Below, one piece after another: positions 25,938-32,732 of a stretch of DNA of 64,000 nucleotides. The DNA comes from Synergistales bacterium (GTDB lineage: Bacteria > Synergistota > Synergistia > Synergistales > JAFGMB01). The stretch is from positions 704,001-768,000 of the forward strand of contig OY762654.1 in NCBI GenBank assembly GCA_963666205.1, in the 5' to 3' direction. The notes beneath the pieces are model-generated. The model was given only the letters and a program-made list of their open reading frames with translations. It was not told where the DNA came from and did not search any database. Numbering within the stretch: the stretch's first letter is position 1; every line of letters begins with the position of its first letter. The translations under genes and the position numbers were made by a program.

Positions 25938-27160
25938 ATCAGATGGTAGACTTTGCTGACAGGATCAGCCGTTTGGGAACTGAGACAGCTTTTGCTGTAG
26001 GTGCGGAGGCAAAACAACTTGCCGACAGGGGATTCAAAGTTTATCCATTCCATCTGGGAGACCTCGATATTGCAACTCCGGAATATGTAGTGGAAGCTGC
26101 TGTTAAAGCTATGAAGGATGGCAAGACAGGTTATTGCGCAACTCCAGGTATTGCTCCCCTCAGGGAGGCTCTGGCAGATGATGTAGGTAAAGCAAGAGAG
26201 CTAAAGCTGGACATGGAAAACGTAAGTATACAGACCGGGGGAAAACCTGTAATAGGGAAATTCATCATGTCTCTCATGAACCCGGGAGATGAAGTCCTTT
26301 ACCCTAATCCGGGATATCCCATCTATGAATCTTTGATCAGATTTCACGGTGGAGTAGCAAAACCATATGGTTTTATAGAGAACGACCTTGGATTTGCTCT
26401 GGATTTTGACAGTATCGAAAGTCAGATAACCCCTAAAACAAAGATCTTTATTTATAACAACTACCATAACCCTACAAGCGCCGAATCAGATCCAGCTGAG
26501 ATGCAAAGACTGGCAGAATTATGCATAAGACATGATCTTTACGTTCTGAGTGATGAGGCATATTTCGATATCCTTTATGAAGGACAGGGTCAGAGCATAG
26601 CAAGCCTTCCGGGAATGTTTGATCGAACTGTTATTCTTTACACATTTTCGAAAAAATTCGCCATGACCGGGTGGCGCCTTGGTGCTGCTATAGGCCCCAA
26701 AGAAATAATATCCATAATTTCCAAACTTAACATAAATGATGAATCATGCTCAAATCATTTTGTCCAGTGGGCGGCAGTGGAAGCCCTTAAAGCTCCCGGG
26801 GATAACTACAACAGAATGCTGGCGGTTCTCAGGGAACGCAGGGATGTGGCTGTTGATATTCTCAACTCCATGGAGGGAATAAAGGTTCACCGGCCCAACA
26901 GCACTTTTTACCTTTTCCCGAACGTTACCTCTGCCATGAAACAACTGGACATCAAAGGAGTAGAGGAATTCAGAAAGGTCATCCTTGACAAAACAGGAGT
27001 TTCTTTTACCACTAGAGATCATTTTGGCACTCCCCTACCCTCTGAAACCCAGAAATATATAAGACTTGCCTATTCCGGGATCACAAAAGAAGACATCCTC
27101 GAAGGCCTTGGTTTGATGAAGGAATTTCTGGCATCTTCATCGCCCTGTAAAGCACTCTAG
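25934..27160 (+). CDS. Aspartate-aminotransferase-like PLP enzyme (class I)
   Basis: PNPGYPIY, NPT, SDEAY, FSKKFAMTGWRLG. Confidence 0.9.
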   Translation: MNQMVDFADRISRLGTETAFAVGAEAKQLADRGFKVYPFHLGDLDIATPEYVVEAAVKAMKDGKTGYCATPGIAPLREALADDVGKARELKLDMENVSIQTGGKPVIGKFIMSLMNPGDEVLYPNPGYPIYESLIRFHGGVAKPYGFIENDLGFALDFDSIESQITPKTKIFIYNNYHNPTSAESDPAEMQRLAELCIRHDLYVLSDEAYFDILYEGQGQSIASLPGMFDRTVILYTFSKKFAMTGWRLGAAIGPKEIISIISKLNINDESCSNHFVQWAAVEALKAPGDNYNRMLAVLRERRDVAVDILNSMEGIKVHRPNSTFYLFPNVTSAMKQLDIKGVEEFRKVILDKTGVSFTTRDHFGTPLPSETQKYIRLAYSGITKEDILEGLGLMKEFLASSSPCKAL

Positions 27161-27175
27161 ATATCCCTGCATCAT

Positions 27176-27220
27176 AAAAGCGGGTGTTGGAGCATGTAAT
27201 AGCTCCAACACCCGCTTTTT
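27176..27220 (+). terminator. Intrinsic terminator
   Basis: AAAAGCGGGTGTTGGAGC-N8-GCTCCAACACCCGCTTTTT. Confidence 0.85.
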
Positions 27221-27290
27221 ATCCATTCCCAAAATCTTCTGTAAAAACATAAAGATTTACTATATAAAGGATTATTAAGACATCTTTATA

Positions 27291-27338
27291 GTTTTACATG
27301 TAGCGTCCTGGAGATCAGATTTATGCTATATGTAGTGG
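27291..27338 (+). promoter_or_regulatory. Tandem NrdR-box-like sites
   Basis: GTTTTACATGTAGCGT (27291) and ATGCTATATGTAGTGG (27323), 32 bp apart, upstream of nrdD. Confidence 0.6.
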
Positions 27339-27417
27339 TAAAATAGTTTGGCTACCCTTAAATACATCAACTTCGAAGTGCAGAACTATGAAAGAATATG
27401 TACAGGGAGGAACACTC

Positions 27418-29457
27418 ATGTCTATTCGATATATAGAAAAACGTGACGGATCAAAGGATATATTCGATAGTAAAAAGATCAGGTATGCGGTTATCAAGGC
27501 AACGAAGGCAGTTGAAAGGAATGAACCTGATACGATAGCCGATGAGATAACTCTCGAAGTGGTGTCTTATCTTAATATTTTTTTTAACAAGGAAGGGATA
27601 CCCACAGTCGAACAGGTTCAGGACCTTGTGGAAAAAATACTTATAGAAAAAGGTTATGCTGATATAGCCAAAGCATACATCCTCTATCGCGAACAACACG
27701 CAAAACTCAGGGATACCCGTGAACTCCTGGGCAACGCAGCCCAGATGGTTAATAAATACCTTGAGAAGATAGACTGGAAGGTCAATGAGAACAGTAACAT
27801 GAGTTACTCCCTGCAGGGACTGAATAACTATATTGCGTCAGAAGTAACTGCACAATACTGGCTAAATGAAATATATCCTCCACAGATACGGGAAAATCAT
27901 ATTGGAGGAGATTTTCATATTCATGACTTGAATAACCTGTCTGTATACTGCTGCGGATGGGATCTGCAGGATCTCCTTCTGAGCGGATTTACGGGTGTAC
28001 ATACTAAAATCGGCAGTAAACCGGCAAAACATTTCAGGACTGCACTCGGACAGATCGTGAATTTCTTTTATACCATGCAGGGAGAATCTGCAGGAGCCCA
28101 GGCTTTCTCAAATTTTGACACGTACCTGGCACCTTTTATCTATTATGATGAACTAAGCTACAGAGAAGTCAAACAGGCTATGCAGGAATTTGTTTTCAAT
28201 CTGAATGTTCCCACCAGAGTAGGTTTTCAGACCCCATTTACCAATATAACAATGGACCTGATCCCGCCATCTTCCATAAAATCACTTCCGGCAATAATAG
28301 GCGGCAAGTTTCAGGAAAAGTCCCTTGGTGAATTCCAGACAGAGATGGACATGCTGAACCGGGCTTTTGCCGAAATAATGCTTGAGGGAGATGCTTCGAA
28401 CAAAGTATTTCCCTTTCCCATACCCACCTATAATATTACCTCGGATTTCTGCTGGGATAACGAGATACTGGAACCAGTATGGGAAATGACATCAAAATAC
28501 GGCATTCCCTATTTCTCCAACTTTGTGAACTCCGATATGGATCCGGACGATGCCAGAAGTATGTGCTGCAGACTCAGGCTGGATAACCGGGAATTGAGGA
28601 AACGTGGCGGTGGTCTTTTTGGATCCAATCCCATGACTGGCTCCATTGGAGTAGTGACCCTTAACATGCCCCGAATCGGTTATCTTTCAGGGGATGAAAA
28701 TGATTTTCTTCGAAGGACTTTCGACCTCATGGATATAGCAAGGGAAAGCCTGGAGATAAAGCGCAAGATCCTTGAAAGATTTACAACACATAATCTTTAT
28801 CCTTACTCAAAGTTCTATCTTCGTAACATTAAAGAATCTTCCGGGAAGTTCTGGAACAACCATTTCAATACTATCGGCCTTAATGGAATGAATGAAGCCG
28901 CCATCAATTTCATGGGGAAAGACCTTTCTTCCACCGAAGGAATTGCTTTCTGTACAAGGGTCATGGAGGCAATGAAGGAAAGGATGATCCAGTTCCAGGA
29001 AGAGACTGGCAACCTTTATAATCTGGAGGCAACCCCTGCAGAAGGAGCAACCTACAGATTTGCAAAAACAGATAAGGAAAGGTTCGGAAACAGTATCATC
29101 TGCGCCAACGAAAAGAACTACAGGGAGTATGGTGCAGATCCCTATTATACGAACTCATCCCAGTTACCGGTTGGCTATACTGATGATATCTTTGAAGCTC
29201 TTTCGCTACAGGATGATCTGCAGACTTTATATACTGGAGGGACCGTTTTCCATGGATTTCTTGGAGAAAGCATGCCCTCCGGTAAAAGCACAAAACTTCT
29301 TGTACGTCGAATTGCTGAAAATTTCAGGCTTCCCTACTATACTATTACCCCTACTTTCAGTATTTGTCCCATTCATGGATATATTCAGGGAGAGCACGAA
29401 TTCTGCCCTTACTGTGATCAGGAAATCGGATATTCCGCAGAGGAGATCATTTCTTGA
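27418..29457 (+). CDS. nrdD: Class III anaerobic ribonucleoside-triphosphate reductase with ATP cone, lacking the C-terminal glycyl-radical motif
   Basis: KRDG..VEQVQDLVE ATP cone, HIHDL, YCCGW, SMCCRL, EATPAEG, TPTFSIC..HG....EFCPYC, then a stop with no RxxGY. Confidence 0.93.
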   Translation: MSIRYIEKRDGSKDIFDSKKIRYAVIKATKAVERNEPDTIADEITLEVVSYLNIFFNKEGIPTVEQVQDLVEKILIEKGYADIAKAYILYREQHAKLRDTRELLGNAAQMVNKYLEKIDWKVNENSNMSYSLQGLNNYIASEVTAQYWLNEIYPPQIRENHIGGDFHIHDLNNLSVYCCGWDLQDLLLSGFTGVHTKIGSKPAKHFRTALGQIVNFFYTMQGESAGAQAFSNFDTYLAPFIYYDELSYREVKQAMQEFVFNLNVPTRVGFQTPFTNITMDLIPPSSIKSLPAIIGGKFQEKSLGEFQTEMDMLNRAFAEIMLEGDASNKVFPFPIPTYNITSDFCWDNEILEPVWEMTSKYGIPYFSNFVNSDMDPDDARSMCCRLRLDNRELRKRGGGLFGSNPMTGSIGVVTLNMPRIGYLSGDENDFLRRTFDLMDIARESLEIKRKILERFTTHNLYPYSKFYLRNIKESSGKFWNNHFNTIGLNGMNEAAINFMGKDLSSTEGIAFCTRVMEAMKERMIQFQEETGNLYNLEATPAEGATYRFAKTDKERFGNSIICANEKNYREYGADPYYTNSSQLPVGYTDDIFEALSLQDDLQTLYTGGTVFHGFLGESMPSGKSTKLLVRRIAENFRLPYYTITPTFSICPIHGYIQGEHEFCPYCDQEIGYSAEEIIS

Positions 29458-30149
29458 TTATAACTGGCATGCAGAAAGTTAGTCTCATTGATTATCCTGA
29501 ACATATTGCCTGCGTGATCTTTACAAGGGGGTGTAATCTCCGTTGTCCCTATTGTCACAACCCGGAGCTGGTGGATCCCGAAAGATACCCTGAAGAGAGT
29601 ATACCTGTTTCCGGTTTGTGGCAGTTTCTTGAAAACAGAAAGAGTTTTCTCGACGGAGTCTGCATTACAGGGGGGGAACCCACTCTCCAGGAAGACATTG
29701 AAGACTTTACAGCTAAAATACGATCAATGGGCTTTAAAATTAAACTGGACACCAATGGATCTAAACCGGATGTTCTGAAAAAACTCCTCAAGAAAAACCT
29801 TCTGGATTATGTAGCCATGGACATAAAAGTGCCTCTTGCAAGATATAAATCTGTTATGGGTTTTAAGGAAGACCCATCCTGTATAGGAGAAAGCATAGAT
29901 ATACTGGAAAATTCATACACCGTCCATGAGTTCAGGACTACAGTAGTTCCTGGAATCCACTCCTGTGAAGATATGGACATCATGGGAGATCTGGTCAAGG
30001 GAACGGATCTGTTTTTTATACAGAATTTCAGACCCAGTAAACATCTTCAACCCAGCATGGAGGGACTTAGCGGATTTCCAAAAGCAATGCTTGAGAGATT
30101 CAGGGATATCCTTGAAAAATATATAACGCATGTTTACATAAGGAACTAG
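29454..30149 (+). CDS. nrdG: Anaerobic RNR activating radical SAM enzyme
   Basis: GCNLRCPYCHN, ITGGEPT, KLDTNG, YVAMDIK, EFRTT. Confidence 0.93.
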   Translation: MIITGMQKVSLIDYPEHIACVIFTRGCNLRCPYCHNPELVDPERYPEESIPVSGLWQFLENRKSFLDGVCITGGEPTLQEDIEDFTAKIRSMGFKIKLDTNGSKPDVLKKLLKKNLLDYVAMDIKVPLARYKSVMGFKEDPSCIGESIDILENSYTVHEFRTTVVPGIHSCEDMDIMGDLVKGTDLFFIQNFRPSKHLQPSMEGLSGFPKAMLERFRDILEKYITHVYIRN

Positions 30150-30179
30150 ACCTTAATAATTGGACTTCAAAGGAGAGCG

Positions 30180-30338
30180 ATGGTCATGGAACAAAAGGAA
30201 CTGAAAAGAACCAGGTGTGAGGTATACTCTAGAGTGGTAGGCTATCTGACCCCGGTATCACAATGGAACAAAGGGAAAAAAGCTGAATTCAGAGACAGGA
30301 AAACCTTTGACAGTATTCTGGATGATATCAAGAAATAA
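30180..30338 (+). CDS. Stand-alone NrdD glycyl-radical domain peptide (52 aa; not in the ORF track)
   Basis: Hand translation MVMEQKELKRTRCEVYSRVVGYLTPVSQWNKGKKAEFRDRKTFDSILDDIKK. AAGGAG SD upstream; alternative start at 30186. Confidence 0.9.
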   Translation: MVMEQKELKRTRCEVYSRVVGYLTPVSQWNKGKKAEFRDRKTFDSILDDIKK

Positions 30339-30465
30339 TTTTAATCCCCTTACCTGTTCGCAGGTAGGACCGATCTGAATAGATGAATCCCTGTACCTGT
30401 TTACTGTCGGCTATACTGTGGATCATCAAGTTTGAAGATGTAGCTTTTCGGAGGGGTAACTCAAT

Positions 30466-31239
30466 ATGAACTTTGCTGTGCTAGATCTTGAAACAAACGG
30501 TTTTAAAGGCACATCAGCAGTTTCAGCTTCATCCATTGTCTTTGACGAAAACGGAATAATTCTGAACTTTTTTAACAGGTATTACTATCCCACCGAAAGG
30601 CCTGATTATGGGGCTATAAGGGTTCATGGCCTTGACCCTTCAAGAATTACCTGGCTCAGAAAGGGGTATTCCTATCCAGAATATTTTTCTGATGACTGGG
30701 ACAGCCTCAGTTTGTTCTGGGAACATCACCATGTTGAAGCTATAACAGTACACAACCTTGGTTTTGACACATCTTTTATTCCCGACTCTGCAAAAAAGGA
30801 CCGTAAATGGTGGTGTTCCATGCTCGGACTTACCGACTTCTGTAAAATTCCGGGCAAAAATGGGCAATATAAATGGCCTAAACTCGAAGAGGCAAAAAAG
30901 ATCACGATGAATACCTTCAGTGCTGATGCCAATGTCCTAAGCACTGAAAGGGCAATATCCAGTCACATATGCCATAACTCTCTCAGCGACTGTATGGATC
31001 TTTACTCTATCTTTATAAGGATATGGAAAAACAGACCGGATCTCGTGAAATTCGCTTTTATAAAAAAAATGTTCATTCAGGCTAAATGGGAAAAATATGA
31101 ATGGGACCACTGTTGTGAACCTGACCGACATATATGGTCTGCCCTTCAGTTAAGTCTGGAAATAGCCCGACTTGCCGGTCTGGAAAAGAAAGAACGAAAA
31201 ATAATCCGCTCTCTGGAAGATCTATTTCCCGAGAGTTAA
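30466..31239 (+). CDS. DEDDh (DnaQ-like) 3'-5' exonuclease family protein
   Basis: VLDLETNG (Exo I), VHG, HNLGFD (Exo II), KWPKL, HNSLSD (Exo III). Confidence 0.8.
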   Translation: MNFAVLDLETNGFKGTSAVSASSIVFDENGIILNFFNRYYYPTERPDYGAIRVHGLDPSRITWLRKGYSYPEYFSDDWDSLSLFWEHHHVEAITVHNLGFDTSFIPDSAKKDRKWWCSMLGLTDFCKIPGKNGQYKWPKLEEAKKITMNTFSADANVLSTERAISSHICHNSLSDCMDLYSIFIRIWKNRPDLVKFAFIKKMFIQAKWEKYEWDHCCEPDRHIWSALQLSLEIARLAGLEKKERKIIRSLEDLFPES

Positions 31240-32732
31240 GACTTCCTCCTGCTCTGCGGAACAAGAGGAGCCATTTCGCGTTCAGGGAAATCATGCAATT
31301 CCCTGTTCATCGAAGCTCTTAGAAAATTGTTCACCCACCAGAATACATCCCTTCTTTTGATAGAACGTCTCATTGAAGACATTCTGTTATATTTTTCTTT
31401 TTCTGACATTGTAAAAGCCCTGAATATTGCATCGGCGGTACCTTCCCTGTCATAGGGATTCACCAGGAGAGCATTCTTTTTGAGTTGTGATGCGGAACCT
31501 GCAAACTCACTCAGGATCAGAACTCCATCATTATTTATGCGAGAAGCACAATACTCTTTGGATACCAGGTTCATCCCGTCCTTTAAAGAAGTTACGAGAG
31601 CTATATCTGCAGTTCGATACATGGCTATGAGTTCTTCCTTTGAAACAGATCTGTGGGCATACCGAACCGGCATCCAGTCGTGAGTTGAAAATTCTCCGTT
31701 TATCTGACTTATAAGCTGCTCGATGTCTCCTTTCAGATCCCTATAAGCTGGAACATCCTCCCTGCTGGGAACAAGCAACTGTAAAAGAGTGATTTTCCCC
31801 CTTAACTGTGGATACCTTTCCAGTACTGTTCTATAAGCCTGAAGTTTCTGAGGTATTCCTTTTGTATAATCCAGCCTGTCCACTCCGAGAATAAGCCTGC
31901 TTCCGCCAATACTATCCCTGCTGAACTCATTTATTCTCTCTTTGACACTCCTGGAGGCAGCAAGATCAGCAAAACTTGTAAAGTCAATACTTATGGGAAG
32001 ACTTGCCAATCTGACAGATCGTCCAAAGGCCTCTACTGTGACTACAGGCCCCCTGCCATGAATTTTAGTATCTGGATCAAATATCCGCAGGCAGTCGATA
32101 AAGTTTCTACGGTCCCTCCAGGTCTGAAATCCTACAAGCATGTATTCCATAAGGTCTTTTACCAGTTCCTGTCTCCATGGAAGCTTCAGGAGAATATCCC
32201 TTGGCGGAAACGTTATGTGCAGGAAAAAGAAACATTTACGATCCTCTTTGTTTTCCCTCAAACAACGGGCCAGAGGTATAAGATGGTAATCATTGACCCA
32301 TAAAAAGTCATTACTGTTACTATGCTTAGTCACTACTTCGGCAAAGATATGGTTTACAACGTTATAAGCTTTCCAGTAGGGTGGATAAAAATAACAGATA
32401 TTCTGGAGATCATGAAAAAGAGGCCATATTATTTCATTGGAAAAACCATGGTAATAGTTATCCACTTCTTCCCTGTTCAAAAGGATGGGTATCAGACGAT
32501 ATCCCATTTCCTTTGAAGCAGGCCCCATAAGGGTCTTCAAGACCTTCAGGTCAAGATCTTCCCTGGCTGTACCCGTCCATCCTATCCAGAAACCGCCTCT
32601 GTCTTTTATTACTGGACTTAAAGCAGTTACAAGACCACCGGAACTCTGCCTGGTTTTCCATTCTCCCTCTTCTTTGAATAAAGAAACCGGGAGGCGGTTA
32701 GATATCACTATAAGCCGCATTCCTTCCTTCAA
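31236..32732 (-). CDS. otsA: Trehalose-6-phosphate synthase (GT20)
   Basis: SNRLP, GGLVTAL, WIGW, DYHL, GVDRLDYTKG, DGMNLV.KEY, LSEFAG. Confidence 0.88.
   Translation of the reverse strand: MKEGMRLIVISNRLPVSLFKEEGEWKTRQSSGGLVTALSPVIKDRGGFWIGWTGTAREDLDLKVLKTLMGPASKEMGYRLIPILLNREEVDNYYHGFSNEIIWPLFHDLQNICYFYPPYWKAYNVVNHIFAEVVTKHSNSNDFLWVNDYHLIPLARCLRENKEDRKCFFFLHITFPPRDILLKLPWRQELVKDLMEYMLVGFQTWRDRRNFIDCLRIFDPDTKIHGRGPVVTVEAFGRSVRLASLPISIDFTSFADLAASRSVKERINEFSRDSIGGSRLILGVDRLDYTKGIPQKLQAYRTVLERYPQLRGKITLLQLLVPSREDVPAYRDLKGDIEQLISQINGEFSTHDWMPVRYAHRSVSKEELIAMYRTADIALVTSLKDGMNLVSKEYCASRINNDGVLILSEFAGSASQLKKNALLVNPYDREGTADAIFRAFTMSEKEKYNRMSSMRRSIKRRDVFWWVNNFLRASMNRELHDFPEREMAPLVPQSRRKS

Follow-up and report, generated by a model that had tools for sequence, protein, structure and literature searches.

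A class III ribonucleotide reductase with its glycyl-radical domain apparently carried on a separate small protein in a Synergistales bacterium

Three adjacent genes were analyzed in a 64,000-nucleotide stretch of the genome of a Synergistales bacterium (assembly GCA_963666205.1, contig OY762654.1, positions 704,001 to 768,000 of the forward strand), here called the window. Between positions 27,418 and 30,338, these genes are nrdD, for the catalytic chain (the core) of a class III, anaerobic ribonucleotide reductase (RNR), nrdG, for its radical S-adenosylmethionine (SAM) activase, and a small open reading frame (ORF) for a peptide of 52 amino acids (aa). As judged from sequence comparisons, the locus very probably specifies a working class III RNR assembled from three gene products, not two, since the glycyl-radical domain is missing from the core and encoded by the small gene. 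The two-piece NrdD is genuine and conserved on these comparisons, and it is likely to be functional.

The two pieces of NrdD

The RVxGY glycyl-radical motif is absent from the core chain and present in the separate ORF at 30180-30338, that is, in trans. The core ends in CPYCDQEIGYSAEEIIS, its stop lying 13 residues past CPYC, which holds the last cysteine of the zinc motif, and overlapping the nrdG start, just as an initial annotation made from the letters alone had described. On the Pfam family NRDD (PF13597), the core scored 604.5 bits (cut-off 26.2) over positions 1-529 of 562, in addition to matching the ATP-cone PF03477, and it reached 515.1 bits on TIGR02487 (cut-off 326.35). On the NCBIfam profile NF006126 (PRK08270) it scored 1034.9 bits (cut-off 548) over positions 3-651 of 684, about 33 terminal profile positions being absent. 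The peptide matches positions 649-682 of the same profile, complementary to the part covered by the core, and positions 531-562 of the 562 in PF13597 (E 9e-11, above the Pfam cut-off), which is its sole Pfam match. These profile matches agree with the proposal of the initial annotation that the small gene after nrdG, preceded by its own Shine-Dalgarno sequence, is the missing NrdD C-terminus. The radical glycine would be Gly21 in SRVVGY (codon GGC, 30240-30242). Aligned with T. maritima NrdD (4COI), the peptide corresponds to the C-terminal residues 608-646. The activase between the two pieces was assigned by TIGR02495 (NrdG2; 209.7 bits, cut-off 131.15) and PF04055, and its translation contains the cluster motif CNLRCPYC.

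The catalytic features expected of the core were found to be conserved. An alignment of 36 sequences, cores together with full-length relatives, shows C650, H653, C663 and C666 without variation, the first pair being CxxH rather than CxxC; therefore, the zinc ribbon appears complete within the core. These four residues are presumably the zinc ligands, as in solved NrdD structures (Logan 2003, cited in PMC9669993). Likewise, S381, M382, C383, C384, R385 and L386 are invariant in this alignment, and the stretch around C383/C384 is taken here to be the finger loop that carries the thiyl radical.

Thirteen positions of the peptide are invariant in 35 aligned homologues (Y16, S17, R18, V19, V20, G21, P25, S27, W29, N30, K33, E36 and R40). 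Over 34 peptide codons compared among 21 nrdD-nrdG-peptide loci, the median proportion of synonymous differences (pS) was 0.92, which is saturated, and that of nonsynonymous differences (pN) was 0.14; against a locus of the same genus, the values were 0.36 and 0, respectively. The median ratio of nonsynonymous to synonymous rates (dN/dS) was 0.04 for the pairs in which dS was finite, which numbered 23 of 210. Judging from these substitution patterns, the peptide gene is under strong purifying selection. Cys13 of the peptide was considered as an obligatory inter-chain zinc ligand and rejected as a general rule, since four invariant candidates for this role are available within the core itself and Cys13 is replaced by Thr in Cryosericum-type peptides.

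Distribution and origin of the split enzyme

The source genome, a single 2.95-Mb contig, contains one core match and one peptide match, and a search of the whole contig revealed no full-length or second nrdD, in agreement with the three-component reading offered by the initial annotation. The arrangement is not confined to this assembly, and the supposition of that annotation that such small genes might be widespread was borne out as well. The open frames that contain strong peptide hits in 40 related genomes measure 56-289 aa, and the order truncated nrdD, nrdG, peptide was observed in 13 of the 14 strong-hit loci, the fourteenth consisting of the peptide alone. Among 151 genomes of the phylum, 25 encode an NF006126-type NrdD above the cut-off; 23 of these end at profile positions 651-665, and the other two, which belong to another family, run as one chain to position 682 (3-682 in G042). 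Halanaerobiales belong to another phylum; among 41 of their genomes, 35 exceeded the NF006126 cut-off, no core match extended beyond position 673, and 36 showed a small, separate match covering positions 628-683.

Beyond these groups, one search of protein databases returned 120 small peptide homologues of 39-83 aa, and 1.84 billion cluster representatives gave 3287 peptide hits at E <= 0.001, with 149 of the best 150 measuring 48-149 aa; the only long hit among these, P0163 (1498 aa), was discarded as an unrelated repeat protein. Two apparent fusions were also rejected: in G019, the 289-aa open frame suggested an NrdG-peptide fusion and the frames merely overlap, and in L076, a stop separates the supposed NrdD and NrdG parts. 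Additionally, in-frame nrdD insertions of about 1 kb, which are probably inteins, were observed in relatives (L027, L029, L035-L037, L050, L053, L055, L061, L099, L111 and others), recurring at three sites that correspond to residues ~188, 281/282 and 393/394 of the window NrdD in 689-aa numbering.

The comparison of gene orders suggests how the split arose. In one-chain relatives, the zinc motif leads into the radical domain as CPxH...CPxC, 2-8 residues and C-EVYSRVVGY, with long linkers in a few; in split cores, CPxC is followed by DxExGY and an acidic tail, and the peptide starts about nine residues before C-EVYSRVVGY. The best 80 loci, drawn from contigs of one genome per species, comprised 38 one-chain genes, 23 in-place splits (nrdD-peptide-nrdG), 10 nrdD-nrdG-peptide loci and 9 orphan peptides, proportions that are not a census because the ranking favours relatives of the query. 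The in-place splits among them belong mainly to Patescibacteria (ultra-small bacteria of the candidate phyla radiation, CPR), DPANN-type archaea and Bipolaricaulota, this form being common in the first two groups. In a tree of 100 cores, all 28 nrdD-nrdG-peptide tips, from Synergistales and Halanaerobiales, fell in one clade (support 0.979), whose sister is a 12-tip clade composed entirely of in-place splits (support 0.926), and parsimony on this tree gave a total of six transitions from one state, split or one-chain, to the other. By this computation, the nrdD-nrdG-peptide order has a single origin. The topology therefore points to a likely history in which a one-chain NrdD with a long linker would have undergone fission in place, giving nrdD-peptide-nrdG, and the peptide gene would then have moved behind nrdG once, in the ancestor of the clade formed by the Synergistales and Halanaerobiales cores.

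Evidence for function and proposed mechanism

An argument for function comes from one genus of Synergistales, genus g7, whose genomes have one truncated core and 2-4 peptide genes each. No class I/II RNR large subunit was found in any of the three genus-g7 genomes (G008, G017 and G026, which are 97-99% complete, one of them being assembled in two contigs). The split enzyme is thus the sole RNR detected in this genus and should therefore work there.

Structure prediction, which the initial annotation had recommended for NrdD with the peptide, was also favourable. Modelled together, core, peptide and zinc reached a score of 0.85 in each of three runs, and the best of the three controls scored 0.00; of 80 solved complexes, 58 attained that mark, as did 2 of 110 mismatched pairs. 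The partner had a predicted local distance difference test (pLDDT) value of at least 77, and the runs agreed in at least 85% of contacts. The model predicts 167-170 contacts involving peptide residues 8-51, with residues 13-16 pairing with core residues 646-650 and Cys13 touching C650/C663.

A mechanism compatible with these predictions can be proposed. NrdG would abstract hydrogen from Gly21 of the peptide in trans, and the peptide would dock on the core by strand addition, its residues 13-16 lying beside the zinc ribbon at core residues 646-650. Docking would place the glycine loop in the barrel, from where the radical would pass to the finger-loop cysteine as it does in one-chain NrdD.

Several observations weigh against this interpretation or limit its reach. 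A class I/II-type RNR large subunit (PF02867) is encoded in the source genome, and class I/II-type RNR also occurs in 9 of 10 other nrdD-nrdG-peptide genomes tested; therefore, the split enzyme is not essential in the source genome, and the argument that it is the only RNR was rejected there and holds for genus g7 only. The finger-loop cysteines C383/C384 are not named in the contact list of the model, which was built with custom alignments and a zinc ion, unlike the calibration of the tool. Since one-chain NrdD structures have been solved, the passing score indicates likeness and may reflect memory of those structures. Metatranscriptome contigs from two studies span the peptide ORF, in line with the expression that the initial annotation had called for; nrdG is patchily covered, from which nothing was inferred. 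This RNA evidence is weak because the contigs are assembled, DNA carry-over is possible, and neither strand nor transcript ends are displayed. The core tree was computed from 232 columns in one FastTree run with local supports, after L025, L077 and L083 had been dropped for poor coverage. Finally, the reading as a whole is drawn from sequence.

A replaceable part or a permanent subunit

If the three-gene enzyme works, its detached peptide could be a replaceable part, and oxygen damage or turnover would then cost about 50 residues instead of 680. This proposal is speculative, and it is judged to fall just short of an even balance. The source genome has a single peptide gene and thus says nothing directly in favour of exchange. 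The alternative is a stable two-subunit enzyme without repair or exchange, produced by neutral fission or favoured only in activation because a free peptide is easier for NrdG to reach than a buried domain, in which the peptide would be a permanent subunit. This explanation is a serious contender, although it too is somewhat more doubtful than probable. The tight linkage of the single peptide gene to nrdD and nrdG in the source genome speaks for it, as does the predicted interface, which is very large for 52 aa and suggests tight binding. Moreover, the split class II enzyme NrdJa/NrdJb provides a precedent for fission for which no repair role is known (PMC9669993).

The permanent-subunit explanation is less easily reconciled with genus g7, where several peptide genes, some of them unlinked, accompany one core. 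One extra peptide gene is located between the genes for the small and large terminase subunits of a prophage, and another lies 3' of a phage-type replication module encoding HTH_36, DnaC-like ATPase and MazG-like proteins. The prophage peptide genes of this genus were located at L107 4998-5159 (the gene flanked by terminase, the same peptide occurring in L032, L117, L119 and L120), L103 4977-5255 and L105 3273-3506. Each of the three genomes also has a diverged chromosomal paralogue (RTPCEIFSRVVGFLTPLSQWNVGKREEFRQRKTYDK), whose neighbour is a gene for a PAS-GGDEF diguanylate cyclase.

Phage-borne peptide genes without a core or an activase argue in the same direction. A relative is encoded in 242 stretches of IMG/VR, and the best 80 viral loci (L109-L188) included 70 with the peptide only, lacking core or nrdG within 4 kb, 9 with a one-chain NrdD and 1 with nrdD-nrdG-peptide. 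In five whole viral records (G198-G202), small ORFs accounted for all NRDD matches, and neither an NrdD core nor a radical-SAM gene was present; three of these records are rated 100% complete, and one of the three, a 35.9-kb genome, contains both L145 and L150 as peptide genes and has terminal repeats. When 47 distinct viral peptide cores were compared, 40 were nearer to split-locus peptides of cells than to one-chain C-termini, 6 showed the reverse and 1 was tied. INPHARED, searched with the peptide, gave only 3 matching records, two with annotated anaerobic RNR genes and one without annotation. At four loci, genes beside or near the viral peptide matched PHROG families, namely those of the large terminase subunit, tail protein J and the metallophosphoesterase phrog_7339. 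The latter ('DNA repair exonuclease', with a weak PF00149 match) was observed near orphan peptides at L128 2928-3998, L150 5188-5973 and L174 3033-3980, lying immediately 5' of the peptide gene in L128 and L174 and about 1 kb 3' of it in L150.

A further type of protein, of 110-166 aa, joins a CxxC...CxxC zinc ribbon to a radical domain and was found with no nrdD within 4 kb in Desulfobacterota and in one viral contig. A Desulfatibacillum metagenome-assembled genome (with locus L087) encodes such an unlinked protein, of 112 aa, and a full-length NrdD on another contig; because both are present, the small protein is a candidate for a GrcA-like spare, and the case tells against a permanent subunit.

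Together, the unlinked copies, the phage peptides and the Desulfatibacillum protein imply that the module could work from a second gene. By analogy, the extra copies and phage genes fit a module working in trans, like T4 Y06I for pyruvate formate-lyase (PFL), and none of these facts comes from the source genome. A broader proposal, put forward tentatively, is that the NrdD-type peptide would be a diffusible, consumable cofactor that split lineages replace when oxygen has damaged it or its radical is lost, and thus a second spare-part system, independent of GrcA. Peptide-only phages would exploit it by loading the host core and NrdG and so increase the deoxynucleoside triphosphate (dNTP) supply of infected cells.

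Decay or joining of the pieces

It could be argued instead that the locus has decayed, the truncated nrdD being inactive and the small ORF a leftover in a cell that relies on the class I/II-type RNR whose PF02867 subunit it encodes. This is very improbable given the strong purifying selection on the peptide, the persistence of the layout across two orders of different phyla, the NF006126 score and conserved catalytic residues of the core, and the three genus-g7 genomes in which no other RNR was found.

The least probable explanation, and a highly unlikely one, is that an intron, trans-splicing, a split intein or stop readthrough unites the pieces in a one-chain NrdD: inteins do occur elsewhere in nrdD of relatives, and the peptide ORF is in frame with nrdG (30147-30182), nothing but the TAG of nrdG and ten sense codons lying between them, but readthrough would yield an NrdG-peptide and not an NrdD fusion, an entire nrdG gene lies between the pieces, a search of 26500-31500 against Rfam (E <= 1) returned no intron and only two weak small-RNA matches 5' of nrdD, and the 13-aa core tail past CPYC with the roughly 9-aa peptide lead-in leaves no room for split-intein halves. 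The shared frame is probably not required, because it is kept in only 7 of 13 related loci.

Features of the operon and its surroundings

The coordinates of the features are collected in Table 1. The long nrdD frame spans 27388..29457, with an upstream ATG at 27388 giving 689 aa and an ATG at 27418 giving 679 aa; the latter is the likely start, having GGAGG upstream and fitting the start of the family profile. Upstream of nrdD, ATGCTATATGTAGTGG at 27323-27338 agrees in 12 of 16 positions with what is taken here to be the NrdR-box consensus.

The peptide ORF begins thirty bases past the nrdG stop. The promoter-like match just 5' of it is one of 10 such sites over the region, where 8.1 were expected from shuffled sequences, which is no excess. 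The stem-loop behind the peptide gene, noticed as a small hairpin in the initial annotation, proved to be an 8-bp stem with a UUCG loop; 5 of 200 shuffles fold equally well, no T-run follows it, and a terminator scan of the region revealed no terminator-like site. The gene 3' of the operon, at 30466-31239, encodes a DnaQ-like 3'-5' exonuclease (phrog_192, E 4e-12) and had no Pfam match at E <= 0.01. A link between this gene and the phage neighbour phrog_7339 was considered and rejected in view of the phrog_192 assignment.

Table 1. Features of the nrdD-nrdG-peptide locus in the window and related small genes at other loci (L, positions within the locus)
Feature	Position	Strand	Description
nrdD core	27418..29457	+	Putative class III RNR: ATP-cone, catalytic barrel and zinc ribbon, without glycyl-radical domain
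Zinc-ribbon codons C650-x2-H653 ... C663-x2-C666 (numbering from M at 27418)	29365..29415	+	Four candidate ligands, all in the core
nrdG, radical-SAM activase, 231 aa	29454..30149	+	TTG start overlaps nrdD TGA stop
Promoter-like TTTACA-16-AATAAT, just 5' of peptide gene	30133..30160	+	Consensus match only, 10/12
Shine-Dalgarno AAGGAG of peptide gene	30170..30175	+	4 nt 5' of ATG 30180
Glycyl-radical peptide gene, 52 aa (50 aa from ATG 30186)	30180..30338	+	PF13597 and NF006126 matches
Stem-loop 3' of peptide gene, 8 bp, UUCG loop, no U-tract	30349..30368	+	-11.7 kcal/mol, z -2.46
Diverged genus-g7 paralogue	L104 4905-5213; L106 4950-5300; L108 4968-5183		
Zinc-ribbon/radical-domain proteins	L052 3749-4111; L067 15-503; L087 3770-4105; L088 3707-4114; L097 3737-4114; L100 3605-4105; viral L168 3767-4114		

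Significance and comparison with known systems

The two-piece NrdD is a widespread and apparently undescribed variant of a known enzyme. The initial annotation knew of no biochemical characterisation, and the full-text literature search, which left subscription journals and supplements outside its scope, likewise found no description of a split NrdD; the supplements of PMC9531940 and PMC9669993 may list NrdDs without a radical domain. In passages of these two papers on RNR phylogeny, the radical domain is placed at the C-terminus and the split enzymes mentioned are of class II only. According to Andorfer 2021 (PMC8683613), YfiD and Y06I are the only validated spare parts, and a 2026 review (PMC13450708) describes spare-part proteins as known only for formate lyases, the existence of others being 'yet to be determined'.

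A widespread natural NrdD with a free 50-residue radical domain would allow a direct test of whether spare parts exist beyond formate lyases, and the free peptide could serve as a minimal substrate in work on radical-loop recognition and activation by activases. The finding also bears on annotation, as the small ORFs are often named 'hypothetical' or mislabelled as whole reductases, and truncated cores could pass for pseudogenes. Additionally, the peptide-only phage genomes point to a very small auxiliary gene that may support dNTP supply under anoxia.

Among the closest known systems is the one-chain class III NrdD with NrdG (T. maritima 4COI/4U3E, P. copri 8P23, phage T4 1H78; NF006126/PRK08270), which has the same core, ATP-cone, zinc ribbon and activase. 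The window peptide aligns with the final 40 residues of the T. maritima enzyme, and one-chain members of the subfamily occur in the same phylum (G042). However, the radical domain of the window enzyme is a separate polypeptide encoded after nrdG, and its core has CDxExGY and an acidic tail where one-chain enzymes have the short linker to the radical domain.

Another RNR with a catalytic subunit encoded in two genes is the class II NrdJa/NrdJb of Pseudomonas aeruginosa (Crona 2015, as cited in PMC9669993), in which the C-terminal zinc-finger region is located on the second chain. It differs from the window enzyme in belonging to another RNR class, with a B12 cofactor, in its split site and in having a second chain without a radical.

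The spare parts of PFL, GrcA/YfiD and phage T4 Y06I, are likewise small stand-alone glycyl-radical domains that act in trans and are presumably activated by the activase of the enzyme. Phage-encoded copies are found in both systems, T4 Y06I being the example given in PMC8683613. The NrdD-type peptide may have a rescue role of this kind. The window peptide matches PF13597 (NRDD) and not PF01228 (Gly_radical), which makes it an analogue of GrcA and not a member of its family. Furthermore, GrcA backs up an enzyme body that has its own radical domain, whereas the window core has none; therefore, unlike GrcA, the peptide would be an obligatory component of the enzyme.

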